From Thermodesulfobacteriota bacterium (GTDB lineage: Bacteria; Desulfobacterota; S145-22), in assembly GCA_024763435.1 (NCBI GenBank), contig JANTFN010000003.1, forward strand, positions 1-32,151: a stretch of 32,151 nt of DNA, given 5' to 3'. Under the pieces are notes generated by a model. That model did not search any database. It was given only the letters and a program-made list of their open reading frames with translations, and was not told the origin of the DNA. This document shows positions 18,079-32,151 of this stretch, one piece after another. Each line of letters opens with the position of its first letter. Positions within the stretch are counted from its first letter, which is position 1. Both the position numbers and the translations under genes were made by a program.

Positions 18079-20766
18079 TTACCATGTTTGACTGATCCAG
18101 TGCGGGCAATCTCCCTTGTCGATGCTAAGATTAATTTTTTGACTTTTCACGGGGGCATCTGTTAGATAAATTGTTTTGGTATCTTTTGACACGCCATTTT
18201 GCGTGTAGGTAAATAGCGAAATATTTAGTTTTGGGGACAACTTCCCGTAACACAGGCAGCCGGGGCCAAAAGGAGTTCCATCAATACCCTGCTTGCATTC
18301 CTTGAATACCCAAAACAGCGCTTCCACGCCGGAAATACCGACCGTGGGGAGGGTCATGACATAACTTATCTTGCCTTTGGGAAATGATGTCGTTTTGTAC
18401 TGGATGGGGGAAGAATTTCCCCTGCCGGTGAAGGAAAAGGTGTCTTTGACTGTTTTGGGTTCAATCCAGAATTTCCAATGACTGTGCCAGGTTTGTGGGG
18501 CGCTCGCACCGAGACGATAGGGGGTTGCAACAGTAAAAGTCAAATATTGTGCCCCGAATTGAGTATGCCCATAATCACCGAGGACAAAGGCGGAATTTGA
18601 GTTGACTTCCATAAAGACTTTTATCCATTTTACGCTTCCGGTTGACGAGGCGCTGAACTGCCATTTGACGTCCTTGATTTTGAATGTTGCATTTTTTGGT
18701 TTCTGGTCATTGGTGATTGAAAAAGCACTGCTTTCGATCTGGGCGCTGCGGTCCGATTTTTCGATGAGCGCGGTATATTTTCCCTGGGGTGTGTCTGCTA
18801 AGACCGCAATCGAGGCCACGCCGCTATAGGGGTTGATAATCAGCTCTTCGGCAATCTTCTTGTGGCTGGCATTCCAAAGCGAAATATAAAGGTTTGTGTT
18901 TTGCAAAGCCTGTTTGTCCAAAACAGTCCACCTAACGTTGTGCCAGCTGCCGGCTTTCCATACCGTTGTTTTGATGGGTTCGGTTATTTTAAGGGTATTA
19001 AAGTAAGCCGGGGCTCTATGGGAATAGGAGATTGAAGGACCGCTGGTTTTTAAAGTAAAAGGCGCACTGTCGCCGGAGACAGTCTTGTTGGATGCTTCAA
19101 CACGCGCGATGAATTGTCCGCTATAAAACTTGGCGGGGATTTTCCAGAGAAGTTCTCCTGTGTTGATAATTGTATTATCGCCCCCTGAGCCGCTACTGAT
19201 TATTGAAAAGGGGGAAGTTTTACCATCCGGATAAATCGTAATTTTTACCTTCGTGGTTTTGCCAAGCCCTATACTGTACCAGCGAATGGGTAATGTCTGG
19301 CCGGACTTCCAGATTGAACCGGATTTTGGGGACCAGACGTTTATGAACGCCGATTCTATGATTTTCGGGGGTAATGGCTTTGCAATGTAAAAAGTATCAC
19401 TTTCACCGTAAATCTTGCTGTTGTTTGAGGCTGAAACGCGGATAAAATAGGTTCCCGCGGGTATTGTCGAAGGTACCGTCCAGGGGAAGGTGAAGCTCAA
19501 AGCGTTAATAGAGCTTTTTATTGTTTTGGTTGTTTTCTTGGTTGTAGCATTTTTAAGCTTGATATTTACCTTATTAATGCTGGCTCCCAAAACAATCCAT
19601 TTTATTTTATGGGTTGTTTTGTAACGCCATACATTATTTTTCATGGGGGATGATATGCCTATACCGTTAGAAGTCCCCATGAAAATTTCGGGTAAAGGAA
19701 GAAAAGCCAGTGGTTTTCTCGCTGCGTAGGGCAATGGTCTTTTCGGTAAAGGCCCAATTCCTGGCTTTGCGATTGAGACGTTTCCCGCGGCAGCCGGTGC
19801 GCGATGCGTTGCCGGCACGTTGCCTGGAATGGTGAAATGTTTGCTATCACTGAAAACCAGGTTATCCAGGGTCTGCACCCGCACTATGTACTTGCCTGTG
19901 CGTTTGATCCTGGAAAGCGACAGACTGAAATGTCCATTGTTGGAAGCGTTTTTCGTCAGCCAGGCCCCATGGCCGTCAGCGGCCAGACGAGATTGTCCAG
20001 CCGGATAAAGCAGAATTTTGATACGGGTATTCATTCTGCCCTTTTTAGACCAGCGGATGTCCAGAAACTTCCCTCTCCAGCCTTTGACCCCGGGATGCTC
20101 CGAGCCCTTCATGGCCAGGGTTTCGATTTCCGCTTTGACATTATAGATCTTCCCCAGCACGTTCCTGACAGGTTTCGCCCTCTCGATATGGGGAGTCCGG
20201 GCGGGCCCTGTTATCCTGACCCCCTGGATCGGTGCGGCAACAATAATCTGAACCGAGGTGCTGTTGTTCTGTGGTCTTATGTCTTCCTGCCCTTTCTTCG
20301 GGATGACCGCAACCTTGACGGTGAAACTCCCCGGCTTTTTAACCTTGAAGGTGGTCTTAACGTCATGTGACTTTCCGGCATCAAGTTTGAGTTTATGGTT
20401 CTTGTCTTTGGTGATCTTCTTTCCGTTCAGGTAGAAGCGCACCACGGCATCCTTGAAGGTCAGGAGACCTGTGTTTTGAATGGTTGCCGTAAAGGTAAGG
20501 GGTTTTCCTATCTTTGGCTTACTGGGAGAGAAGGTGAGTTTCTGGACACTGAGATCACCTTTCAAAGTCAAGGGCCTGGCTTGATGGATTTTCTGGCGGG
20601 CAGGTTGCGCCCGGTGGGATTGCTGCCCGGCAGGGTGACTGTTCCCGGTCCTTTCAGGGGGCGGCAACTGAAGCTGCTGGATGGCAACTGCGGTTGAGCC
20701 ATAGAAGCAGAAGGCTATAAGGGTGAAAGCAAAAATTGCCTGTACGATATATGTCTTCCTTTTCAT
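18079..20766 (-). CDS. Secreted multi-Ig-like protein E (CARDB + ~4 Ser/Thr-rich-family Ig-like modules); lacks the Cys repeat
   Basis: Signal peptide; DLSV....FSP..P..G....TATIQN.G...NN (CARDB); repeated SP.....W..G....I.W ... S..F.I modules; AAGGAGG SD. Confidence 0.85.
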   Translation of the reverse strand: MKRKTYIVQAIFAFTLIAFCFYGSTAVAIQQLQLPPPERTGNSHPAGQQSHRAQPARQKIHQARPLTLKGDLSVQKLTFSPSKPKIGKPLTFTATIQNTGLLTFKDAVVRFYLNGKKITKDKNHKLKLDAGKSHDVKTTFKVKKPGSFTVKVAVIPKKGQEDIRPQNNSTSVQIIVAAPIQGVRITGPARTPHIERAKPVRNVLGKIYNVKAEIETLAMKGSEHPGVKGWRGKFLDIRWSKKGRMNTRIKILLYPAGQSRLAADGHGAWLTKNASNNGHFSLSLSRIKRTGKYIVRVQTLDNLVFSDSKHFTIPGNVPATHRAPAAAGNVSIAKPGIGPLPKRPLPYAARKPLAFLPLPEIFMGTSNGIGISSPMKNNVWRYKTTHKIKWIVLGASINKVNIKLKNATTKKTTKTIKSSINALSFTFPWTVPSTIPAGTYFIRVSASNNSKIYGESDTFYIAKPLPPKIIESAFINVWSPKSGSIWKSGQTLPIRWYSIGLGKTTKVKITIYPDGKTSPFSIISSGSGGDNTIINTGELLWKIPAKFYSGQFIARVEASNKTVSGDSAPFTLKTSGPSISYSHRAPAYFNTLKITEPIKTTVWKAGSWHNVRWTVLDKQALQNTNLYISLWNASHKKIAEELIINPYSGVASIAVLADTPQGKYTALIEKSDRSAQIESSAFSITNDQKPKNATFKIKDVKWQFSASSTGSVKWIKVFMEVNSNSAFVLGDYGHTQFGAQYLTFTVATPYRLGASAPQTWHSHWKFWIEPKTVKDTFSFTGRGNSSPIQYKTTSFPKGKISYVMTLPTVGISGVEALFWVFKECKQGIDGTPFGPGCLCYGKLSPKLNISLFTYTQNGVSKDTKTIYLTDAPVKSQKINLSIDKGDCPHWISQTW

Positions 20767-20857
20767 GACCTGTCCCCTCCTTTTTTCATGCTGAGATTAT
20801 ACCGGACCATTTTCTATGATCCTTTTTTTAGTAGTTACAGGATGGCACGCACCACCT

Positions 20858-23371
20858 TCACCAACAACTTCTGGCTTCTGAACAGGTGAGGGGGTAGAAG
20901 TATACCGTATCATCAAAATCTCTGTAGGTATGAAGCCTCTTATAGATATAACCTTTTACACAGTTGTTGGCTTCATTGGTTTCCATAATAAGATTATCAG
21001 GGTCAATTCTGGCATGGTACTCCCGGACTCCCGGCATGATCCAGTACTCCTGGCGTTGATCGCATTTATATCCGTCTCCCCCAGTATAGGGATCCAGCTC
21101 AGGGATGTCGTAGCACTTCCCCCCGCACTTCTCTATCCAGATGCAAAGTTTTGACGGGGGCGACCGGACAGTCCCCATGTTCCTTACGTAGACAGGGATT
21201 CTGACATGTCTGTTCAGCTTTGCCCAAATTTCACTACATATACAAACGACAAGGTCAGGCAGATTGTTTGCTCTGTGGGCGGAGAAAGTTTTACGGTCTT
21301 CGTTGTTAGATTCATTGGATTCATCGACATCATTGTTGGTATCAATCTCAAGGGTGTGGTGATATTCTCCAGCAGCAGGATAATTGTATGATTTTTCCAG
21401 AAGATAGTGTACCCCGTAGTTAAGGGAAGGAATGTTTATGTCATCAAATTCCTTTTGAAATCTCGGTCCGCTTATGGCCAGCTTTGCCTTCGAAGGGCCC
21501 GCGCTTCCCAGGGAATTGTTTTCAATCAAGGCCTTTACCGTGATTAATCCCTGTGTTTCATCCTCTTCTATTTCCATGTTCCTGATGATCAAGTCTGGTT
21601 TGTAGGTGACAATTTCAAACCGGTCACTGACTGTCAGGTAATTCCAGTCTCCCTTTCTTATTTCGATTCTATAATTGCCTGACGGAATTTCAGGGACCTG
21701 CCAGGTAAAGCTGGTGCCGTGAAGTTCTTCACTTATTAATTCATACCGGACACCCATGAGCAGGACAAAAAAACCTTCCTCAGAATTGTGGAAGTTGTCC
21801 GTCCACTTGAGAGTGTACGTGTTGCCCTGGACGAGAATCGATCCCTTGCGGGGAAAGATTACCATGTTCGGCGGCGGGATATATTCTTCTGTGGCTATCT
21901 GCTGACATGTCATTGTATCGGACCAGGTATTATCTTCGTCGGATTCATCAATCCTGTGGTTCGCATCTGCCTCAATCCTGATTTCCTTGCCGCATGGAGC
22001 GGAAGCAAAAGTGTAAGAAAGAAGTTCTGTTGATACACTTGACGGTAAAGGAGGATTGACGTGCTGGGAATGCACAAGGCTGTTTCCGAACCAGATATGA
22101 ACGTTGAAAGCATCTAATACGGTGAGTGTGCCAATATTTTTTACCTTGTAAGATAATGTTACGGCATCGCCGGGTGAAAAATACCGGGGTAAAAAACTGA
22201 CCTCTGTTACGATAAGGTTTGGACCATCACCAGGCGAAAACAGTTTGCCGGGCAAATGCTTCCCTTCTGCCTGGAGGATTGAAGGCTTTGAAGCCTGCAT
22301 TGTCGGATGCGTTTTCGGGGATATGATTGTCGGCTTAAAGGCTTTCGCTTTAACTTTCTTAAAGGCGACCTGGATTTTTTCACTTTTTTTCAGCACAAGT
22401 TCAGTATCAAAATCCAGCATGCCGCCCGGTTTAGCCAAAAGCTTCTTGGGATCAATGCCTTTCAATCGCCAGCTCTTTGCCCTGCCACCATGGTGGAGGA
22501 CCAGCTTTCCATGCCGGTAATCCCCGGCAGTCAGTTTCCCTTTCCCCCTGTTCCGGACACGGATATGAAGCGTGCCGCCCTTGAGATAAATCCTCACGAT
22601 GGAAAGCAGGGGAGGTGCCTGGGCCAGAAGCGTTGTTTTCTTGGATGCCGCCGGGGCCGGAGAGTACTTCCTGACACTCAGGGTCTTTTCCGCCTCGGCC
22701 TTCTTTTTGAAAAACCGCCCACGTCTCGCCAGGCATTTCCTGTAGGTGGTTTCAACGATCCGGCCATTTAACAGGCACCATCCCATGGGTTCACATACCC
22801 TGGAAGCTGCTTGTTTGTCTTTGAAAAATATGCCCTTCTTTTTGAAACAGTCTCCCTTCTTCATAAGAGAAACCTTGTGGTTGATGCAGCAATATCCTGG
22901 CTGATTCATCTCGCAGTAAAGAAGCGCAGCGCCTTTTTTTTCAAAGAACCGCCCTTTTGCCTCCTGACACTTTCCCCTGACGGTTTTGACGACCTTCCCG
23001 TTGATGCAGCAATATCCCGGCTGATTGATCTCGCAATAGTGGGTCGCCGCTGCCTTATTTTCAAAGAACAGGCCATTTATTCCCTGACAGTCTTCCTTTT
23101 TTAATGAAGCGACCTTGCCATCTGTACAGCACCATCCTTTCGTCTGGGCATTGAGATACGCCTTCGCGGAATTCCTGTCTTTGAAGAAATGCCCCTTGCA
23201 CCTGGACCGGGTGCTTTTGAAGATCTTACCATCCGCGCAGCACCAGCCGGTGACGTGGCTACCCTTTTTAGTCTTTGCGGCTTGTTTGGCATAGGAAGAG
23301 AGAACACTTCCCGCAGTTATCAGCAATGCCGCCAACAGGAAGGTTATCAGGTGTTTTGTCTGTTTTTTTAT
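20858..23371 (-). CDS. Secreted Cys-repeat protein A (5 repeats; CARDB and Ig-like C-terminus); probable ATA start
   Basis: ATA at 23371 follows AAGGAGGA and gives IKKQTKHLITFLLAALL, collinear with MKNQAKHLIIFLLVALL of paralogue D; three CARDB-like modules (PNL.V, PDL.I, PDLVV ... E..E.N). Confidence 0.85.
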   Translation of the reverse strand: MKKQTKHLITFLLAALLITAGSVLSSYAKQAAKTKKGSHVTGWCCADGKIFKSTRSRCKGHFFKDRNSAKAYLNAQTKGWCCTDGKVASLKKEDCQGINGLFFENKAAATHYCEINQPGYCCINGKVVKTVRGKCQEAKGRFFEKKGAALLYCEMNQPGYCCINHKVSLMKKGDCFKKKGIFFKDKQAASRVCEPMGWCLLNGRIVETTYRKCLARRGRFFKKKAEAEKTLSVRKYSPAPAASKKTTLLAQAPPLLSIVRIYLKGGTLHIRVRNRGKGKLTAGDYRHGKLVLHHGGRAKSWRLKGIDPKKLLAKPGGMLDFDTELVLKKSEKIQVAFKKVKAKAFKPTIISPKTHPTMQASKPSILQAEGKHLPGKLFSPGDGPNLIVTEVSFLPRYFSPGDAVTLSYKVKNIGTLTVLDAFNVHIWFGNSLVHSQHVNPPLPSSVSTELLSYTFASAPCGKEIRIEADANHRIDESDEDNTWSDTMTCQQIATEEYIPPPNMVIFPRKGSILVQGNTYTLKWTDNFHNSEEGFFVLLMGVRYELISEELHGTSFTWQVPEIPSGNYRIEIRKGDWNYLTVSDRFEIVTYKPDLIIRNMEIEEDETQGLITVKALIENNSLGSAGPSKAKLAISGPRFQKEFDDINIPSLNYGVHYLLEKSYNYPAAGEYHHTLEIDTNNDVDESNESNNEDRKTFSAHRANNLPDLVVCICSEIWAKLNRHVRIPVYVRNMGTVRSPPSKLCIWIEKCGGKCYDIPELDPYTGGDGYKCDQRQEYWIMPGVREYHARIDPDNLIMETNEANNCVKGYIYKRLHTYRDFDDTVYFYPLTCSEARSCW
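22679..23248 (-). repeat. 5 x ~40-aa G[WY]CC Cys-rich repeat in protein A
   Basis: G[WY]C[CL]x[DN]G[KR]x7-C-x4-G-x-FF-x5-A-x3-C repeated. Confidence 0.92.
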
Positions 23372-23403
23372 AACCTATCCTCCTTCCATTTAGTTTATCA
23401 AAG

Positions 23404-25566
23404 CTACAACGTGAGACAGGAATACTCCCTCTCCCTATCAATAGCTCTCCAGGTGATGTGACAATCATTATTCGAGGTGCTTGTTTCGGGTATCTTGTTG
23501 TGCTGATCAAGAATAACGTGAAAATCGAGATCGTCGCCCCTGTGTGAATCATTATAAATAAAGGTATATATTTTTTCCTGGTGCCCGCCGATCCCATCCT
23601 CAATCCAGCCGGCCATATCAAGGCCCCGGAGATCAATTCTGATTCGCCGCCAGGTTGTTCCAGCTTCTCGGTTTTCTACGGTGATCTGAATAACAAGCTG
23701 TCGTTGCCCGCTCACTGTTCGACGGGAAATTCTGACATGGGATGTGTGAATGTCGATCTCGGGATGTTCACTCTCATCGCCGGGAGTGAACGTGATACCG
23801 GCTGCGTCATTATTGCCTGAACTGTTGGTAACGGTTATTTCGGCAGGTCGATTTTCTCCGGCATAAAGTCTGTCGGTAGGATCTCCGTAAGGATCATCCA
23901 TGGTGTCCGAAAGCTGCATCCTAATCCGGGTGTTATTCCAACTGATAATATTGACCCTGTAAGCGTATCTGTCACCCGGGACAGAAAATGTTAATTGACC
24001 CGGGGAGTCTCCAAAGTTCCTCCCGCGTATCGTAAGCTCCTGGAGAGGTGAAATTTCTCTCTTGGAAAGGCGATCGATACGTGGAACCATCGGCTGAATG
24101 GTGCAGACATATCTGGGACCTTCTTCGCCACTGTAATAGTAAGGTGTCTCGCTGGGTCCACCCGGTCCCGAAGCGATAAAGGTTCCGGGTGCCGGCGGTT
24201 CGACCCGGGCAGGTTTGAGCCAGATCACAGTCTCTTTTGCCGACCGGCCGATGGCTTCTCCCATGGATATCGGAACGATGCAGCGGACACGCCCTTGCGT
24301 CCATTCGGTAATCTCGCAGGAAAAAGTCGCATCCGGCAGGGCAATGACCACATGGCCTTCGTTTCTCCCAAAATCGTGGCCGTAAATGGACAGATTCCCC
24401 CCGACAGCGACCGGATGGTTGACCGATGTAATCCTGGCCGGAAACCCGGGCTCGGGGAGTGATGGTGCCTGCGCAGTCATCCCCGCATTAGATCCGGCAA
24501 CTCTTCGTTCTGTGGTCATGCGCGAATTCTGTAATGCCTTGTTGGATTGTTGAGAGGGAGCTATTTTCCTTTTAAAATAGTCGGTTTTTACTGTTGGCAT
24601 AATCTGCAAAGCACTTGACCTGCTGGCAACAGGGATGAGCAAAGCAGTTTTCTTCGCTTCACCGGGAAGGTTTGAAAATGACGTCTTGATCCTTGCGCGC
24701 CGGGTCAACTTGAGTCCGGTATCGAAATCCACGCTTTTGCCGGGGGTGAGCGCCCCCCTGGGATCGACCTTGCCCAAAGTCCAGGTCTTGTTCTTCGCGC
24801 CAAATGACAGAATAAGGCGGCCCTTGTCGTAATGCTTGCGCGTAAACTTCCCTTTGCCCTTGTTTTTGACCCGGACATAGATGGTGCCGTTTCTGAGAAA
24901 AATCTTCTCCACGGAAAGCAGGGGAGAGAGAGTGGACTTCCCTGATGTCCCCGGACCGGAAGAGGGTTTCTGCTTCTGTGTTGCCTGGCGCAGGGCCTTT
25001 TGAGCTTCCGCTTTCTTGGTGAAAAAACGCCCCCTTCTCGTCAGGCAGATCTTGCGGGTGGTTTCAAAAATCCGGCCATTAAACAAACACCAGCCCTTGC
25101 AGGCCGCGGCGGCTTTTTCCCTGCCTGTGAAGAACTTCCCTCCCTTGTCCTGACAGCCCCCTTTGGTCATCCTTGAGACTTTTCCATCCAGGCAGCAGTA
25201 CCCGGGGGTCTGGGCGTCGCAGTAGTCATTGGCGTCATTCTGGGTTGTGAAGAACTTCCCTCCTCTTATTTTGCAATTGCCTTTGGTTATGTTGGTAACC
25301 TTTCTATCCGCGCAGCACCAGCCTTTTGTCTGGGCATCGAGATACGCCTTCGCGGAGTTCCTGTCTTTGAAGAAATGCCCCTTATGTTCTCGACAGTAGG
25401 AACTGGTACTTTTGATGATCTTGCCTTTCGCGTAGCACCAGCCGACTATTTGACCGCCCTTTTTCCCTTTCGATGCCTGTTTGGCGTAGGAAGAGATGGC
25501 AAATGCGGAGACGACCAGTAATGCTGTGAAAAGAAAGAATATTGCATGTTTTGTTCTAGGGTTCAT
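23404..25566 (-). CDS. Secreted Cys-repeat protein B (4 repeats; two IPT/TIG-like domains + CARDB-like end)
   Basis: Signal peptide ending SSYA; RITSV...G..LSIYG.DFG and PRI..LS......LTIRG.NFG; D..N.I.E....NN. Confidence 0.9.
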   Translation of the reverse strand: MNPRTKHAIFFLFTALLVVSAFAISSYAKQASKGKKGGQIVGWCYAKGKIIKSTSSYCREHKGHFFKDRNSAKAYLDAQTKGWCCADRKVTNITKGNCKIRGGKFFTTQNDANDYCDAQTPGYCCLDGKVSRMTKGGCQDKGGKFFTGREKAAAACKGWCLFNGRIFETTRKICLTRRGRFFTKKAEAQKALRQATQKQKPSSGPGTSGKSTLSPLLSVEKIFLRNGTIYVRVKNKGKGKFTRKHYDKGRLILSFGAKNKTWTLGKVDPRGALTPGKSVDFDTGLKLTRRARIKTSFSNLPGEAKKTALLIPVASRSSALQIMPTVKTDYFKRKIAPSQQSNKALQNSRMTTERRVAGSNAGMTAQAPSLPEPGFPARITSVNHPVAVGGNLSIYGHDFGRNEGHVVIALPDATFSCEITEWTQGRVRCIVPISMGEAIGRSAKETVIWLKPARVEPPAPGTFIASGPGGPSETPYYYSGEEGPRYVCTIQPMVPRIDRLSKREISPLQELTIRGRNFGDSPGQLTFSVPGDRYAYRVNIISWNNTRIRMQLSDTMDDPYGDPTDRLYAGENRPAEITVTNSSGNNDAAGITFTPGDESEHPEIDIHTSHVRISRRTVSGQRQLVIQITVENREAGTTWRRIRIDLRGLDMAGWIEDGIGGHQEKIYTFIYNDSHRGDDLDFHVILDQHNKIPETSTSNNDCHITWRAIDREREYSCLTL
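24991..25443 (-). repeat. 4 x G[WY]CC Cys-rich repeat in protein B
   Basis: Same consensus as in A. Confidence 0.92.
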
Positions 25567-25605
25567 GGTAATTCCCCTCCTTTTTTTATGTTGCCGGTTT
25601 TTTAC

Positions 25606-25645
25606 TCTTTATAAGTAAGTGTCAAAATCACCGAAAAAGTTCATT
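25606..25645 (-). promoter_or_regulatory. Conserved 40-bp upstream element, copy 1
   Basis: 38/40 identical to 31947-31986; ~40 bp upstream of the ATG of B. Confidence 0.7.
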
Positions 25646-26111
25646 CCTCTGTGAAATTAAATTTTTCATGTCTAAATGAAGATTTAACAATTTAAATTCC
25701 CATAAAAAGTTTCCCCTGTAGGGGATCTATTTTTTTCTCCGGAAGAAGGAAAATATTTCCCCCTGTTTTTCTAATACAAGTAAAAATGTCAAAAGGCCCT
25801 TGTTTCTAAACCAGGGCACAACGGAGAAAAATCAAAAAAAGGGAGAATACACCAGGAGTTTTCCAGCGATAGCATAGTCTGCGGCCTGTAACGCGATATC
25901 TCACCGGAAACGCATACCTTAAAGATGATGTCTGTTGTTGGACCATTACGTGAATCTCTAAATTATAGGTTCTCATAAACAATAACATTGTTTTAATATC
26001 ATGTCAAAGTCCTGGCAGTGCTTAACGGCATACGTAAAGGGAAAACTAAAGCGTGTAAATAAAATTAAGTTCATATCGAGAAAGCCCCTTTTTGTTGTTG
26101 GCTAACGCTTG

Positions 26112-28877
26112 TTATTCGATGTAGAAAAAATCACTATAGGCTGTTACGCTGGGACAATTATCAAGCTCGAGGCGCAACCTGTATCTCCCGGTAGGAAGCG
26201 CGCCAGGCCCGCCCATGTTTCCCGCCCCACTGTCGCCTCCTGCCATCGTTACCCCATAAGACGCATCGTAACAGGAAGAGCCGATGACCCACCGAAAGCC
26301 TATTGTCGAAGACACCATAATTCTATAATTAAATGGTAGGTGTCGCGCTATGCAATCATAGTCTCTCCCGTCAGAACTGAGGTAAAGAGAGGCGGTTGCA
26401 GTGGGACAGGGATGGGGGCAGTATGGTGAATTGTCCCACACAATATCCACCCTGTCACCACTGGAGAAACGTCTCCTTGAGCCGGAGAAACCAAGTGTTA
26501 TTGCTGGTTGCTCGATGCGAAACTCCTCGCTTTCCCCGTAAATTCTGGGATCGGTTCTACTTTCAATGCGGATTTTGTACCCAGCTCCCAAGTATATGTC
26601 ACCTCTGCAATCACCACCGATTATCCAGGGGTGATTAGTCAGGTCAATATGTGATAGCGCTGCAATATTTTCAAGGATTGTTTTTATGCGTCTCCCACGA
26701 TTCATCAAGATTGCGTTGATCCTTTCAGGCCTAAAATTATAATGGCAGTGAATGGTTGGGGTGGAACCCAGAGACAGGGTTTCTCCATCTACCGAAACTT
26801 CCATAGGTGGGACAACGCTGAAAGAATGATCACTTTGATCATCAATCAGGGTCCCCCCGGTGATTATTTTGATAGTGTAGTCATCTCCCTCTTCGTAAGA
26901 GCCCGAGACATCATAGTTTACTGTACAGGTATAGGCATTGGCATTGGGACCCGGGGCATCTGAATCAAGTACACAATGGGCGTCTGTTTCATAGATTGTA
27001 TCCAAAATTCGCCCGTTTTTCATCAGTTGTATGAAGAAGTTCGGCAAAGCATCGCCGGGCATGGCAGAATAGTAACGCCATGAAATCGCCTGTCTGCTTC
27101 CTTTGGGCCACAATTCACCGCCGTTGGGGGAGAGCACACTAATACCATAAGCGCGCGTAGTTGATCCTGCGTCCCTGATCCCGCGAGTAAGATAAAAGGG
27201 CTTAGAAGAACCGTGAGATTCATTTTCTCCAACAAAGCGGACTCGGTTAAAAAAAGTCATGACATAAGGGCCCCCTTCCTGGAGATCATCGGGAAGGGTA
27301 CAATCAAGGATAAGGCTTCGCCGATCATCACTCAGAGACACAATAGTGCAAGGCAAGAAACGCCAAACTCCCATCATGGTTTCCGATTGCGATTGCAGGT
27401 GAATCCGTTTCTCCAGTTCATCTCCGGGGGGGCTTCGGAATGAAGGAAATTCCGGATCGGGAATAGAGAGGTAGATTGTCACATGCTCATTGGCAAGGTA
27501 AATTTGTTTCCTTGGTTCAATAGAAACTAACATTCCATGAGGGGCATAAGCATGCATCTCCGGGGGAATCACCCAGCCAATTTGAAAATCATCACTCACA
27601 CCATAGATGGCAGCAGTTGCTCGAACCATTACTGTATAGTGCCGGTTGGAAGGCACGTCTGCTGGAACCGGAAGTTCGACGCGCATTTCTCTTGACGGGA
27701 GCGGAATGACTGAGACGTCAGCGGTGGCAACGATTGTGTCTCCATTCCTAAGGGTCACTTCGGAAATCGGGAGCGGTTCTCTGCTTTCCTCAAAACTAAA
27801 ATGCACTTCGATGGTGTCGCCGGGCATAAAATGATTGGTGGATGAAGGCAGGGAAACATGAATTCCCCGATCAATAAAGAGGGGATTGTGTTTGCCCGGC
27901 TTACGGATGAGGGAAGGCAGTTTTCCCTGAAGCTTGGCGGGTGTCACGCCTGCCGCACGGGATAATGGAGCAACGCTGGTAACACGTCTGGTAAAAACCT
28001 TATGTTTTCCTTCTTTTTGAGTCAGTACTTTCGATGGTCCGAGTCGTACCGTCTTGAATCCTGCTATCCTGACCTTTTTAAAGGTTATCTGGAATTGGAT
28101 TATTTCTCTTTTTTTCAGCACAAGCCCCGTATCAAAGCTCATCTTTCCGCCCGGTTTAGTTAAAAGTCTTTTAAGATCAATCTGCTGTAAGCGCCACGTA
28201 TTTATCTTGCCGCTATAACGGAGGACAAGTTTGCCCTGTTTGTAATCCCGGGCGGTCAGCTTCCCTTTTCCTTTATTCTGGAGACGGATATGGACGGTGC
28301 CGCCCTTAAGATAGATCCGGGCTACGGAAAGCAGGGGGAAGATAGAAGGCTTGGCTGGTGCCTTGCTTGGAACCAAAAGGGACGAGGGAGCCTGCTTCCC
28401 GGACTTTGCCAGATGCAGGGCCTTTTCAGCTTCGGCTTTCTTCGTGAAAAACCGCCCCCGTCGCGTCACGCAGAGCTTTTTTGTACTCTCGAAAATCCGG
28501 TTGGTTGACAGGCACCAGCCTTTCAGTTCACAAGCTGAAGTGGCTTTGGTTTTGTCTGTAAAGAATTTTCCTTTCTTTTTCAGGCAGTTCCCCTTATTCG
28601 AGGAAACCACCTTGCCATTCAGGCAGCAGTATCCGGGGATCTGGCTATCGCAATAGCTCACAGCGGCCTTGTGGGATGTAAAGAAGTGTCCCTTATGCTT
28701 TAGACACATCGAAAGGGTACTTTTGAAGATCTTGCCGCCCGCGCAGCACCAGCCGATAGTATGGCTACCCTTTTTCCCTGAAGGCGTCTTCATGGCGTAG
28801 GAAGAGATGGCAAATACGAAGACGACCAGTAAGGCTGTGAAAAGAGAAAATATTGCATGTTTTGTTCTGGGGTTCAT
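26112..28877 (-). CDS. Secreted Cys-repeat protein C (3 repeats; ~5 Ig-like modules)
   Basis: Signal peptide ending SSYA; VLSPNGGE.W..GS...ISW module; recurrent YG.S..F.I module ends. Confidence 0.9.
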   Translation of the reverse strand: MNPRTKHAIFSLFTALLVVFVFAISSYAMKTPSGKKGSHTIGWCCAGGKIFKSTLSMCLKHKGHFFTSHKAAVSYCDSQIPGYCCLNGKVVSSNKGNCLKKKGKFFTDKTKATSACELKGWCLSTNRIFESTKKLCVTRRGRFFTKKAEAEKALHLAKSGKQAPSSLLVPSKAPAKPSIFPLLSVARIYLKGGTVHIRLQNKGKGKLTARDYKQGKLVLRYSGKINTWRLQQIDLKRLLTKPGGKMSFDTGLVLKKREIIQFQITFKKVRIAGFKTVRLGPSKVLTQKEGKHKVFTRRVTSVAPLSRAAGVTPAKLQGKLPSLIRKPGKHNPLFIDRGIHVSLPSSTNHFMPGDTIEVHFSFEESREPLPISEVTLRNGDTIVATADVSVIPLPSREMRVELPVPADVPSNRHYTVMVRATAAIYGVSDDFQIGWVIPPEMHAYAPHGMLVSIEPRKQIYLANEHVTIYLSIPDPEFPSFRSPPGDELEKRIHLQSQSETMMGVWRFLPCTIVSLSDDRRSLILDCTLPDDLQEGGPYVMTFFNRVRFVGENESHGSSKPFYLTRGIRDAGSTTRAYGISVLSPNGGELWPKGSRQAISWRYYSAMPGDALPNFFIQLMKNGRILDTIYETDAHCVLDSDAPGPNANAYTCTVNYDVSGSYEEGDDYTIKIITGGTLIDDQSDHSFSVVPPMEVSVDGETLSLGSTPTIHCHYNFRPERINAILMNRGRRIKTILENIAALSHIDLTNHPWIIGGDCRGDIYLGAGYKIRIESRTDPRIYGESEEFRIEQPAITLGFSGSRRRFSSGDRVDIVWDNSPYCPHPCPTATASLYLSSDGRDYDCIARHLPFNYRIMVSSTIGFRWVIGSSCYDASYGVTMAGGDSGAGNMGGPGALPTGRYRLRLELDNCPSVTAYSDFFYIE
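28416..28754 (-). repeat. 3 x G[WY]CC Cys-rich repeat in protein C
   Basis: Same consensus as in A. Confidence 0.92.
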
Positions 28878-29062
28878 GGCAATTTCCCTCCTGTTGCAAG
28901 CTTGAATGTTAACATTTTTGAACTCAACCTGTTTGGCTCGGGGCTTCTTTTCATGACAGTGATGGTTTTGTCGATGTCGGTCTGTTTGGTTTTCGCTATG
29001 CCCAAAAGCCCCATAAACAGGAAACGCAATACAGTTATTGCCGGAATGACAATTTTTCTCAC
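28874..29062 (-). CDS. Small ORF or gene relic between D and C
   Basis: GTG start, basic then hydrophobic N-terminus (MRKIVIPAITVLRFLFMGLLGIA), stop overlaps the start of C (ATGA); no recognisable domain. Confidence 0.25.
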   Translation of the reverse strand: MRKIVIPAITVLRFLFMGLLGIAKTKQTDIDKTITVMKRSPEPNRLSSKMLTFKLATGGKLP

Positions 29063-29153
29063 AGGGTCACCTTTAGGGGTTGTTGTTTTTCGACACCTGC
29101 GAACAAGATAAGAGAAGTTTCTCCTCCCTTATTTTTCTGATTGGATTTCCATC

Positions 29154-31910
29154 TTACCTCCTGCAACCACGGTCAGGTAAGTGAAACATTGAAGAAAGAC
29201 CGTACACATAGTTTCTAAAACCATTAGGATACACCACGATGTTTGCAGGGATTCCTCGGTCATTTGTAAAACAACTGCAATAAGGATAGCCACCGCTACT
29301 ACTCTCGCCGAATCTCCAGCACAGACTTCCAGAAGGTGGCTGGTCATAGGATATCCAGATTTCACCACAATACCGCATAATTTCATGGAAGAAAGACTGA
29401 GCCGCGCCACAACTCGAGTTGCCGCTAACATACAGACAAACAACAGATACCCGAACCGAAGCATCCAGGGGGCTTTCCCAGTGGATCTGTCTGCCGTGTC
29501 TGCATCCGGATGTATTGGTCCAGACCCGGAAACCGGCATACCTTACTTCGAAATAACTGCCCAAGCCGTAGTTAGAAGGATCAGACGTATCGGAGACGCG
29601 AATCGCATAATGCGAACCACCATGCAGGGGCACTTCTTCTCCATGAAAAATCCACTGGCCTTCAGATACGCGATTTCCGCCTATATTCCACGTAAACCTT
29701 TGCTCGTTCCCACTAAATACCCCCTGGTTTCGGCTTAAGACCATAACCTCTGTTCCGCTTTCGTCCACAACTGAAATGCGAACGGAGCGTACCCCGGTGT
29801 GTGAGTGTTCTAATGGCCATTGGAATCGAATGACAGTAGGGTTGGCTATATAGCGCACGCCGCCACCATGCATTACCTTGATCGGGCCGGTGACGGAAAA
29901 CGTTTCGCTTATTCCTTCGGTAGGGCCGTTTCTATCTACAACTTTGATCCGGTAATCGGATGCCGGAGACAGATCGGCGGGGATAGGCCAGCTGAGAGAG
30001 TAGGACTCGGATGCCCCATGCCATATGGCACGTTCTGCGGGGATTGTAAGCACGGTATCAGCGCCACGCTTCAGCTGAACCAGAAAAGCGCGTTCTGCGG
30101 GGTAATGGCCATTGATACGCCAGGCAATAATCTGGGTGCTGCCGCGCGGCCAGCTGATCGGCGTGTGTCCTGGTGTTACGAGCCGAATCTCCCAGGCCGT
30201 ATGGGTTCCCCCGCCTCCCTCAGAAGCTCCCCCTTCCCCTATTGGCCGGATGGGAAATGTGACAAATCCGCTTGCTTTGGGATGCGTGGCAAGGATGGTA
30301 TAATTACCATAAGAGATGCCGGATGGGATTTCGAAGTGCAGCGTGTGGATTGCCTGATGCATCGTGCCCGCCCCTTCCGGGAGATATTCTTGCGTCTGTT
30401 CCGCTTCAACGCTGCCGTTGTGGTAGAGCTGAAAGGTAATTGTGCCGGGTTCGACCCGTCGGTTGAACTGATACCTGACGGTCATGGTTCCGCCCGTATG
30501 CTGGACATCATCCCTGGAAGGCTCTAAAAAGTCTATTCGCGCCAAGTTTCTCGTGATCTGAAATTCATCGCTTTCACCGTAGGCGTCGGATGCGGAATGG
30601 CTGGCTGAAATATAATAGCGCCCGATGGGGGTATCCTCCCGGAGCGTTAAAAGAGCCGGAACGCCTGGATGGGCGGGAACAGTTATGGTGCCGGCGTTGG
30701 TGCCGGTCCTGCTGAGGACGGAGAAGGTAATGTCGCCGTCCGACACATCCTCCCGGGTAATCTCATAAATGATATGGATGGTTTCACCCTGGTAATATTT
30801 TGCCGGGCCGACAGGATTGAGAATATGGATTCCCCTGTCAAGTATCATGGGGACCATTGATGGGGGTGACGGTTTCGCCCTTTTGGCCATCATCAAAGGT
30901 GAAACGGGTGTTTTTTTTGTATGTCCTGTGGAAAATGTTGAAGCCGTTTTCTGCTTCAATCTTTCAGATGGGGTAAGCAGAGATGTTTTGGATTTACCAC
31001 TTGGGAGTTGAGCAGTTGAAACCTGGACTTTGGCGCGCCGGGTCAGTTTGAACCCCGTATCGAACTCGACATATTTGCCTTTATTGAGCGCGCCTTTGGG
31101 GTCGATCCTGCTCAAGGACCAGGTCTTGTTCTTCGCTCCCAGCGACAACATTAAGCGCCCCTTGTCATAATGCCCCCGCGTAAACTTTCCCTTGCCTTTG
31201 TTTCTCACACGGAGATGGACGATGCCGTCCTTGAGATATATCTTTTCCACGGAAAGCAGGGGAAATAGCGCGGGCTTCTCTGGTGTTCCCGGGCCGGGCG
31301 ATAGTTTCTGCTTCTGCTTTGCCAGACGCAGGGCTTTTTGAGCTTCCGTTTTCTTGGCGAAAAAACGCCCCCGCCTTGTCAGGCAGGTCCTGCGGGTGAT
31401 TTCGAAAATCCGGTTGTTTAACAGGCACCAGCCTTTTAGTTCACAGGCTGAGGTGGCTTTGGTTTTGTCTGTAAAGAATTTTCCTTTCTTTTTCAGGCAT
31501 TCACCTTTCTTCATTTTGGAAACCTTGTGGTCAATGCAGCAGTAACCCGGTTGACTCATCTCGCAATACAGGTCCGCCGCGTTTTTTTTCTTAAAGAAAT
31601 GCCCTTTGTTTTTCAGGCAGTTCCCCTTATTCGAGGAAACCACCTTGCCATTCAGGCAGCAGTATCCGGGGGTCTGGGCGTCGCAGTAACTCTCGGCAGC
31701 CTCGCGGGTTGCAAAGAAGTGCCCCTTCTGTTTTGAACACATTGCGGCGGTGGTCTTAACGGTTTTACCGCTCTTGCAGCACCACCCGATGGTCTGGCCT
31801 CCTTTTCCCCCTTTTGAGGCCTGCCTGGCATGTGAAGATATAACGGCTCCCACAGTTCCCAGAAGCGCCACAAGCAGGAAGATTATCAAGTGCTTTGCCT
31901 GATTTTTCAT
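29154..31910 (-). CDS. Secreted Cys-repeat protein D (4 repeats; ~5 Ig-like modules)
   Basis: Signal peptide ending SSHA; DRGIH entry into the Ig region shared with C; YGESDEFQI, GISETFSV, YGLGSYFEV, YGLSSMFHL module ends. Confidence 0.9.
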   Translation of the reverse strand: MKNQAKHLIIFLLVALLGTVGAVISSHARQASKGGKGGQTIGWCCKSGKTVKTTAAMCSKQKGHFFATREAAESYCDAQTPGYCCLNGKVVSSNKGNCLKNKGHFFKKKNAADLYCEMSQPGYCCIDHKVSKMKKGECLKKKGKFFTDKTKATSACELKGWCLLNNRIFEITRRTCLTRRGRFFAKKTEAQKALRLAKQKQKLSPGPGTPEKPALFPLLSVEKIYLKDGIVHLRVRNKGKGKFTRGHYDKGRLMLSLGAKNKTWSLSRIDPKGALNKGKYVEFDTGFKLTRRAKVQVSTAQLPSGKSKTSLLTPSERLKQKTASTFSTGHTKKTPVSPLMMAKRAKPSPPSMVPMILDRGIHILNPVGPAKYYQGETIHIIYEITREDVSDGDITFSVLSRTGTNAGTITVPAHPGVPALLTLREDTPIGRYYISASHSASDAYGESDEFQITRNLARIDFLEPSRDDVQHTGGTMTVRYQFNRRVEPGTITFQLYHNGSVEAEQTQEYLPEGAGTMHQAIHTLHFEIPSGISYGNYTILATHPKASGFVTFPIRPIGEGGASEGGGGTHTAWEIRLVTPGHTPISWPRGSTQIIAWRINGHYPAERAFLVQLKRGADTVLTIPAERAIWHGASESYSLSWPIPADLSPASDYRIKVVDRNGPTEGISETFSVTGPIKVMHGGGVRYIANPTVIRFQWPLEHSHTGVRSVRISVVDESGTEVMVLSRNQGVFSGNEQRFTWNIGGNRVSEGQWIFHGEEVPLHGGSHYAIRVSDTSDPSNYGLGSYFEVRYAGFRVWTNTSGCRHGRQIHWESPLDASVRVSVVCLYVSGNSSCGAAQSFFHEIMRYCGEIWISYDQPPSGSLCWRFGESSSGGYPYCSCFTNDRGIPANIVVYPNGFRNYVYGLSSMFHLPDRGCRR
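31329..31787 (-). repeat. 4 x G[WY]CC Cys-rich repeat in protein D
   Basis: Same consensus as in A. Confidence 0.92.
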
Positions 31911-31946
31911 GATTTACCCCCCATTTTAATGTTGCAGGATTGTGTT

Positions 31947-31986
31947 TCTTTATAAGTAAGTGCCAAAATCACCGAAAAGGTTCATT
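31947..31986 (-). promoter_or_regulatory. Conserved 40-bp upstream element, copy 2
   Basis: 38/40 identical to 25606-25645; ~36 bp upstream of the ATG of D. Confidence 0.7.
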
Positions 31987-32151
31987 GATTATGAAATATT
32001 TTTTTACATATTTCAATTTTGTTATATGAAAAATCTTTAAAACCAACCCTTGTGTCACCTCCAGTATCGGAAAAAATTTATTTTTTTCAGTGCATCTGAA
32101 TTTTTAAAAAATCTAAGGGACCGGAGCGTTAAAAGGCTGAAATACATTGTT

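Follow-up and report, generated by a model that had tools for sequence, protein, structure and literature searches.

Patchwork N-terminal regions in a tandem family of four exported-protein genes from a vent bacterium, and their probable origin by homologous recombination

Background

The stretch of DNA analysed here (32,151 nt, called the window below) is the entire contig JANTFN010000003.1 (C3) of a Thermodesulfobacteriota bacterium, assembly GCA_024763435.1, a metagenome bin of 285 contigs and 1.94 Mb; the public runs containing it are labelled hydrothermal vent metagenomes. It carries four tandem paralogues, A, B, C and D, which are consecutive open reading frames (ORFs) on the minus strand separated by spacers of 29, 545 and 276 nt. 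All four share one N-terminal plan, namely, a Sec-type signal peptide, three to five cysteine-rich (Cys-rich) repeats of 38-40 aa each, a short linker and an Ig-like domain of about 95 aa (DOM). The repeats number three in C, four in B, four in D and five in A, and the last of them is always a two-cysteine variant. Within this common region the nearest partner of each gene changes from one segment to the next, so that no single tree describes the four genes. We regard them as a tandem family that has repeatedly exchanged N-terminal segments between its copies by ordinary homologous recombination, and give this reading a probability of roughly 0.8. The proteins are Sec-exported and probably located at the cell surface or in the matrix.

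Results

The nearest partner changes along the genes

An earlier note on this DNA, made from the sequence alone, had drawn attention to conflicting likenesses among the four genes, and the pairings that it listed are present. In the signal peptide B pairs with C (82% nt identity) and A with D (68%). At the end of repeat 1, A pairs with B; the core that had been reported (23142-23197 vs 25328-25383, 54/56) extends to 67/71, and a perfect run as long as its 26 nt was reached in only 44 of 20,000 shuffles. The middle repeats pair A with D (72-76% nt over repeat 3b/4a) and B with D (39/41 nt). In DOM the pairs are A with C and B with D, at about 72% nt and 65-66% aa identity, the remaining pairs reaching 42-49% aa. 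Past about nt 1000, after DOM, no nucleotide similarity is found among A-D; amino-acid identity within the array is 66-80% in the repeats and the last repeat and 22-38% in the C-termini. The edges of the tracts (Table 1) fall on the most conserved motifs of the repeats, GxCC, KGxFF and CLKKKG.

Quartet site patterns were counted in a codon alignment restricted to the modules that A-D have in common. For the groupings AB/CD, AC/BD and AD/BC, respectively, the informative sites number 3, 1 and 23 in the signal peptide, 16, 1 and 2 in repeat 1, 4, 4 and 1 in the last repeat, 2, 3 and 2 in the linker, and 5, 45 and 4 in DOM. The favoured pattern is AD/BC in the signal peptide (23 sites vs 4), AB/CD in repeat 1 (16 vs 3) and AC/BD in DOM (45 vs 9), and a chi-square over these three segments is 108.7 (4 degrees of freedom, p = 1.3e-22). 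Along the genes the patterns run in blocks, AD/BC, then AB/CD, then AC/BD, with 36 switches over 116 informative sites; the mean of shuffled orders was 74.3 (minimum 53), and none of 100,000 shuffles was as low. The segment borders were chosen with the hypothesis of the earlier note in view, whereas the order-shuffle test is independent of that choice. Informative sites at third codon positions follow the local pattern (12 vs 1 in the signal peptide, 13 vs 4 in DOM), and the proportion of synonymous differences (pS) in the signal peptide is 0.29 for B-C and 0.45 for A-D, vs 0.70-0.86 for the four cross-partner pairs.

Maximum-likelihood trees were built for each segment from A-D plus paralogue F (described below) as a fifth row. 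They group (B,C) with support of 100/99 and (A,D) with 87/86 in the signal peptide, (A,B) with 99/99 and (C,D) with 92/89 in repeat 1, and (A,C) with 100/99 and (B,D) with 68/67 in DOM. In approximately unbiased (AU) tests, all four rival pairs were rejected in each of the three segments (p from 1.2e-3 to 1.5e-7). No single tree thus fits all segments, and recombination among the copies is therefore required. A duplication of a two-gene block, D-C to B-A, fits the upstream motif (B=D), the last repeat (B=D) and DOM (B=D, A=C), but is ruled out as the sole event because it agrees neither with the pairings B=C and A=D of the signal peptide, nor with A=B and C=D of repeat 1, nor with the unrelated C-termini. 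All three possible pairings thus occur as blocks of informative sites, and the earlier statement that simple duplication does not suffice is borne out; the case named there as a refutation, one tree for all segments, does not hold.

Table 1. Genes, partner tracts and upstream motif in the window (positions counted from the first letter of the window)
Feature	Position	Strand	Content	Basis
Gene A	20858-23371	minus	signal peptide, 5 repeats (22679-23248), DOM (22328-22612), CARDB-type C-terminus	ORF and translation; Pfam CARDB 111.8 bits, E 2e-32; module alignment
Gene B	23404-25566	minus	720 aa; signal peptide, 4 repeats (24991-25443), DOM (24640-24924), IPT/TIG-type C-terminus	ORF and translation; Pfam TIG 28.4 bits vs cut-off 20.9; module alignment
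Gene C	26112-28877	minus	921 aa; signal peptide, 3 repeats (28416-28754), DOM (28053-28337), Kre9_KNH-type C-terminus	ORF and translation; Pfam Kre9_KNH 28.6 bits vs cut-off 24.6; module alignment
Gene D	29154-31910	minus	918 aa; signal peptide, 4 repeats (31329-31787), DOM (30978-31262), Kre9_KNH-type C-terminus	ORF and translation; Pfam Kre9_KNH 25.6 bits vs cut-off 24.6; module alignment; AlphaFold models
B=C tract	25370-25584 in B, 28681-28895 in C	minus	begins 18 nt upstream of the start codon and ends at nt 197; 81% identity over nt 1-197	
A=B tract, end of repeat 1	23127-23197 vs 25313-25383	minus	67/71 identical; abrupt start at KGHFF motif	
B=D tract	25184-25224 vs 31648-31688	minus	39/41 nt; end of B repeat 2 resembles end of D repeat 1	
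C=D patch	28540-28638 in C	minus	99 nt identical to joined D pieces 31609-31671 and 31453-31499	
D counterpart of C=D patch	31453-31671	minus	D-specific piece of 109 nt (31500-31608) between the 63-nt and 47-nt blocks	
Upstream motif, 40 nt	25606-25645 (before B); copy 31947-31986 (before D)	minus	2/40 differ between the copies	

One recent exchange and several older ones

The C=D patch consists of two identical blocks, of 63 nt (28576-28638 = 31609-31671) and 47 nt (28540-28586 = 31453-31499); the earlier note had seen both blocks, with lengths of 47 and 52 nt that have to be corrected. They overlap by 11 nt in C and lie 120 nt, or one repeat unit, apart in D, and C nt 240-338 is therefore a perfect join of two D pieces. 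The patch has 99/99 matches, including 35 consecutive third positions, a run exceeded in 0 of 20,000 shuffles. Its junction passes from D repeat 2 to D repeat 3 through an 11-nt motif that both units contain, with exactly one 120-nt unit removed. The patch is a recent exchange together with the loss or gain of one 120-nt repeat unit, and it looks like a short conversion tract because identity is lower on both flanks.

The other partner tracts are older, and their ages differ. Synonymous divergence (dS) is 0.22 for A=B in repeat 1b, 0.37 for B=C in the signal peptide, 0.42 for B=D in the last repeat, 0.68 for A=D in the signal peptide and 0.96-1.12 for the DOM pairs; for most pairs that are not partners in the signal peptide, repeat 1 and DOM, dS is saturated or nearly so (about 0.8 to infinite). 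In the last repeat dS is 0.42-1.02 over all pairs, without contrast between partners and non-partners. Exchange was recurrent and took place at differing times, which fits homologous exchange across long evolutionary time; the C=D patch is the one clearly recent case and the only one that resembles a short conversion tract. Recurrent gene conversion through the repeats, as proposed in the earlier note, therefore holds as regards recurrent recombination (dS from 0 to about 1.1) and tract edges on repeat motifs, but a conversion tract is clear only for C=D.

The repeat units also carry a trace of this history. Repeat 1 has a cysteine-free ending in A, B and most homologues, whereas the first repeat of C and D ends like repeat 2 of B; C and D share the loss of repeat unit 2, which is a derived character uniting them.

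Check of the assembly

Contigs of four public runs from two studies were compared with the window, the probable source run being X1; the parts with zero coverage in runs X2-X4 are uninformative. Two separately built contigs of the source run agree with the window with 0 differences, one over 20000-23297 (A to nt 78) and the other over 24146-25853, which holds the whole N-terminus of B and its upstream region. A third contig, 28609-31482, links the 3' part of D, the spacer and the 5' part of C; the order of C and D is therefore fixed, and the sole alternative path through the assembly graph shifts the 109-nt piece 31500-31608 from D to C. That path cannot re-link signal peptides, repeat 1 and DOM. 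The contigs break only at the 63-nt and 47-nt blocks that C and D share, each time exactly 30 nt within the block, presumably as expected of a 31-mer graph, the word size of the tool description. Outside the C=D patch the longest shared block is 26 nt. The run of the second study has the same sequences at about 3x depth (16/18 contigs at ≥99% identity, with three single-letter differences listed), and the other runs contain the same strain with 0-2 differences per piece.

In all, the four runs show one fixed arrangement with no supported alternative joint, although contigs drop rare variants. A joint from 24867 to 28404 in run X1 was rejected as a rearranged allele: its depth is 2.5, it has 21 letters on one side and it joins non-homologous positions. 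A contig of depth 9.4 in the same run, touching 25212 and 23181 with 34 letters between, and loose ends at 25187 and 25218 were likewise rejected as A/B recombinants. This contig seems to be the missing N-terminus and upstream unit of a further paralogue, G, because the loose end reverse-translates to the first full repeat of G.

Relatives of the array

Further members of the family lie on other contigs of the same genome. Paralogue F (contig C150) is complete and has a D-like tail; paralogue G (contig C260, locus L013) has a B-like tail and is cut inside its repeats by the contig end. Two further contigs, C247 and C134, encode proteins (loci L017-L020) with two DOM-like domains each and without Cys repeats. 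In a tree, their second domain falls with the DOM of A and C (94/91), and their CARDB tails align with that of A (34-35% over 151-221 aa), with alignment scores of 156-157 for the tail of A and at most 45 for B, C and D. The tail of D has its best partners in F (53% aa) and in a homologue of another genus (50%), which are 60% identical to each other, and the tail of B in P0009 from another metagenome (43%) and in G (34%). The C-terminal tails are thus separate lineages with their nearest relatives outside the array. The last repeat is 66-80% identical in amino acids within the array and 43-51% identical to F and G.

An alignment-based scan of genome contigs gave 13 loci, and the loci of relatives come from bins labelled Desulfobacterales, Deltaproteobacteria and Thermodesulfobacteriota. 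Of the other genomes of the same family, three of eight gave matches; of 32 genomes that represent the phylum's other families, none did. Few proteins have the complete architecture: a search of 5.8 billion clusters in the length range covered gave 11, four of them those of the window. Homologues of other assemblies are patchworks as well, with P0007 pairing with P0008 in the signal peptide (78%) and with P0011 in the middle repeats (92%), P0008 with P0011 in DOM (92%), and P0005 with P0007 in the far C-terminus (68%). P0004, from another metagenome, has at least seven repeats, and an internal two-unit segment recurs in it almost unchanged; this recurrence points to a recent intragenic duplication, and repeat number is accordingly labile across the family.

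The repeat and DOM as protein modules

The AlphaFold model of the 311-aa N-terminus has a predicted local distance difference test score (pLDDT) of 82.7, and that of the repeat array alone has 96.8; each repeat is modelled as a hairpin-helix-strand-helix unit. DOM is modelled as a generic Ig-like sandwich (Z 8.9 to FlaF, Z 6.9 to the CARDB domain 3idu), and it was the only part of the 311-aa model matched by Foldseek and other structure searches. For the repeat, Pfam gave only sub-threshold matches with the cut-off loosened to E 1, NCBIfam gave none, and a profile search of the PDB gave 0 matches at E ≤ 1. The best hit in a structural search, at Z 3.6, was to C2H2 zinc-finger arrays, and a protein atlas search returned only chance-level matches (0.81).

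Of 1.84 billion cluster representatives, 593 match a profile of the repeat at E ≤ 0.001, and 137 do so at ≤ 1e-30. Twelve of 25 repeat-carrying representatives that were scanned lack any Pfam family, and the other 13 have extracellular modules such as CARDB, TIG, Kre9_KNH, LGFP, FG-GAP and Peptidase_C25. The repeat also occurs at loci L024-L029, L032 and L033, in bins labelled, among others, Desulfosoma, Fischerbacteria, Dehalococcoidales, Acidobacteria and Clostridia. In 103 repeat units, taken from all family members and the relatives, cysteines 1 and 3 are always present, and cysteines 2 and 4 co-vary (both in 73, neither in 21, discordant in nine), a count that overstates independence because the units are interrelated. 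This suggests that the cysteines pair 1-3 and 2-4, a pattern that resembles disulfides more than a single metal site with four ligands. A useful by-product of the analysis is thus a confidently folded four-cysteine unit of 38-40 aa, carried by extracellular multidomain proteins, for which these searches gave no Pfam family and no solved structural relative.

Gene starts, upstream regions and surroundings

The C-terminal Pfam matches of A (CARDB), B (TIG), and C and D (Kre9_KNH) are all above the curated cut-off. All four genes are full-length and have a ribosome-binding site and a signal peptide of their own. In gene A the full signal peptide cannot be reached from any ATG, GTG or TTG and needs an ATA start at 23369-23371; the first common start codon of A, a TTG at 23335, would truncate the signal peptide. 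The ATA is preceded by a strong ribosome-binding site, followed by a run of seven A, and lies 29 nt past the stop of B. Either ATA serves as the start, or A is losing its start.

The 40-nt upstream motif stands about 40-80 nt before B, D, F and some other genes; neither C nor A is preceded by it. Seven copies exist in the genome within 10 mismatches, namely, those in the window and others on contigs C150, C260, C163 and C45 (two); none was found in four loci of relatives. The motif is incompatible with sigma-70 spacing, and a scan of 20500-32151 for sigma-70 and terminator consensus gave nothing usable. The motif may serve a regulon of secreted proteins as a common promoter or operator. Upstream of C, likeness to B is confined to the 18 nt before the start codon. 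Taken together, the upstream regions (B sharing the motif with D and F, C resembling B over 18 nt, A starting 29 nt past B) amount to one more switch of pairing.

The rest of the window is ordinary chromosome, with Lnt, an LPS-kinase-like gene, solute-binding proteins, a tRNA methyltransferase and a sulphur transporter. The 17 other ORFs of the window that were scanned gave no match at E ≤ 1e-5 to families of recombinases, transposases or reverse transcriptases, in agreement with the earlier view that no dedicated recombinase is involved. Next downstream of A, at 18079-20766 on the minus strand, lies a gene for an 895-aa secreted protein with CARDB and Kre9_KNH domains and without Cys repeats; an ORF of apparently similar sequence is found just upstream of the family gene in two of the relatives' loci.

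Discussion

How the patchwork would arise, and what weighs against it

In the mechanism that we propose, the conserved repeat motifs would supply the homology for recombination between tandem copies. Misaligned pairing would add or remove whole 120-nt units, giving the three, four, four and five units of C, B, D and A, and short non-reciprocal patches (gene conversion) together with unequal crossovers would accumulate over a long time. Each gene would end as a patchwork whose nearest relative changes along its length. We infer that the route was RecA-type and intragenomic, which way sequence was transferred, and that the proteins lie at the surface; the incongruence of the segments, the differing ages of the tracts and the gain or loss of a repeat unit at an 11-nt junction are directly observed.

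Several points weigh against this reading. The last repeat and the linker give no resolved tree, and the signal-peptide pair (A,D) and the DOM pair (B,D) are only moderately supported. Part of the AB/CD signal of repeat 1 comes from the shared deletion of unit 2 in C and D, non-equivalent half-units being compared there. Among pairwise perfect runs at third positions none is striking except C=D, and the older blocks could come equally from unequal crossing-over during growth of the array or from exchange with other strains. With the genus represented by one genome, the events can be neither polarised nor placed in time relative to a speciation, and intragenomic exchange looks the same as exchange between strains. 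Finally, the contigs compared were built from the same reads as the assembly, low-coverage runs excepted, and the linkage across the two C=D blocks rests on the original assembly and not on raw reads.

Other explanations

Instead of being converted among the four resident copies, the blocks may have entered from other strains or species, through horizontal transfer followed by homologous recombination, or pre-existing modules may have been fused. Each C-terminal type indeed has closer relatives outside the array than inside it, the A/C type of DOM falls in trees with the second domain of the repeat-free proteins of C247 and C134, and intergenomic exchange is permitted by the model of the Staphylococcus aureus lpl cluster (PMC2568036). 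Such an origin is nevertheless unlikely, since every N-terminal segment has its best partner within the same array and the C=D patch is identical within one genome. Active shuffling at high frequency, re-assorting promoters, signal peptides and C-termini as phase or antigenic variation of a population, seems very improbable to us. The genes are tandem, co-oriented and equipped with built-in repeats, whose number ranges from three to five, and the perfect 99-nt patch attests a recent exchange; but most partner tracts are old (dS 0.2-1.1), and none of the four genes is a silent cassette, since all are complete and have their own signal peptide and ribosome-binding site. Moreover, no recombinase or reverse-transcriptase family was matched among the other ORFs scanned, the contigs of the four runs, in which rare variants are invisible, have a single arrangement, and the lone cross-gene joint, from 24867 to 28404, is shallow and non-homologous. 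The earlier note had inferred an ability to swap C-termini between promoters and signal peptides. Nothing shows such an ability; the contigs, where rare variants are invisible, have one fixed arrangement, and the C-termini of the array lack homology at the nucleotide level and hence are not being swapped among these four genes at present. Its interpretation is thus partly supported: right in kind as to recurrent recombination through the repeats, over-read as to a working combinatorial device. In short, no sign of active or programmed shuffling was seen.

That the mosaics are chimeric joins made by a short-read metagenome assembler is barely credible. The genome is a 285-contig bin, the contig of paralogue G ends inside repeats, and the run contigs break at the identical C=D blocks; yet in A and in B one contig runs through the mosaic part without differences, no shared block outside C=D exceeds 26 nt, and the one alternative C/D path moves only 31500-31608, leaving the linkages of signal peptide, repeat 1 and DOM unaffected. 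In addition, the partner tracts are 68-94% identical and hence not copies, and the run of the second study has the same sequences. We attach next to no weight to convergent selection on amino-acid motifs as a mimic of segmental kinship. The repeats do hold strongly conserved motifs, but the pairings persist at third codon positions and in pS, and the C=D patch has its 35 consecutive identical third positions. Homologous exchange between the tandem copies remains the explanation that we prefer.

Comparison with known systems

The closest analogue is the lpl (lipoprotein-like) cluster of tandem paralogues in Staphylococcus aureus, in which a conserved region inside each ORF shuffles the flanking variable parts (Tsuru & Kobayashi 2008, PMC2568036). 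As in lpl, A-D are tandem, co-oriented paralogues for exported proteins, a conserved stretch within every ORF is the site of recombination, the trees are incongruent within one ORF, and unequal crossing-over and apparent conversion are invoked without a dedicated recombinase. Unlike lpl, the homology in A-D is an intragenic array of 120-nt repeats near the 5' end, the number of units varies as well, and the tree switches at least three times per gene vs once in lpl; A-D are, moreover, non-lipoproteins of a free-living vent bacterium. The hallmark given for lpl, a conserved unit made of the 3' end of one ORF, the spacer and the 5' end of the next, is seen there across strains, whereas a single genome is available here. 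In its same-strand tandem paralogues, its conserved region flanked by variable ones and its incongruent trees of ORF parts, the array A-D agrees with a recombining tandem paralogue cluster of the lpl type, and the process is familiar for bacterial surface-protein families.

The array can also be set beside families of pathogens. The babA/babB genes of Helicobacter pylori and UspA of Moraxella are mosaic surface-protein families shaped by intragenomic conversion; they share with A-D the patchwork paralogues, with 5' and 3' gene parts exchanged through common sequence, but A-D come without a host, evidence of selection for variation, or population variants seen in contigs. In the cassette-based antigenic variation of pilE/pilS, vlsE and msp2, segments are likewise transferred non-reciprocally between related sequences, whereas A-D are complete, have their own translation signals, and form neither a single expression site nor silent cassettes. 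All four ORFs being full-length, silent donor copies feeding one expression site are not found among them. A diversity-generating retroelement is not indicated either, no reverse transcriptase having been matched among the 17 other ORFs of the window at E ≤ 1e-5; A-specific mismatches were not looked for.

Significance

The repeat array might further be a portable export or anchor module, with the 120-nt repeats serving as homology that re-assorts promoters, leaders and Ig-like heads. We think this quite unlikely, and leave it open because homologues of other genera are patchworks too and because the C=D patch is recent. If true, antigenic variation would have an environmental counterpart in such a re-assorting array, perhaps under pressure from phage or from surface attachment. 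For annotation, the four genes carry a warning, as no single tree or orthology call is valid for A-D. For the family, they provide a clean and statistically strong case of segmental exchange among surface-protein genes outside the pathogens in which such exchange is usually studied.

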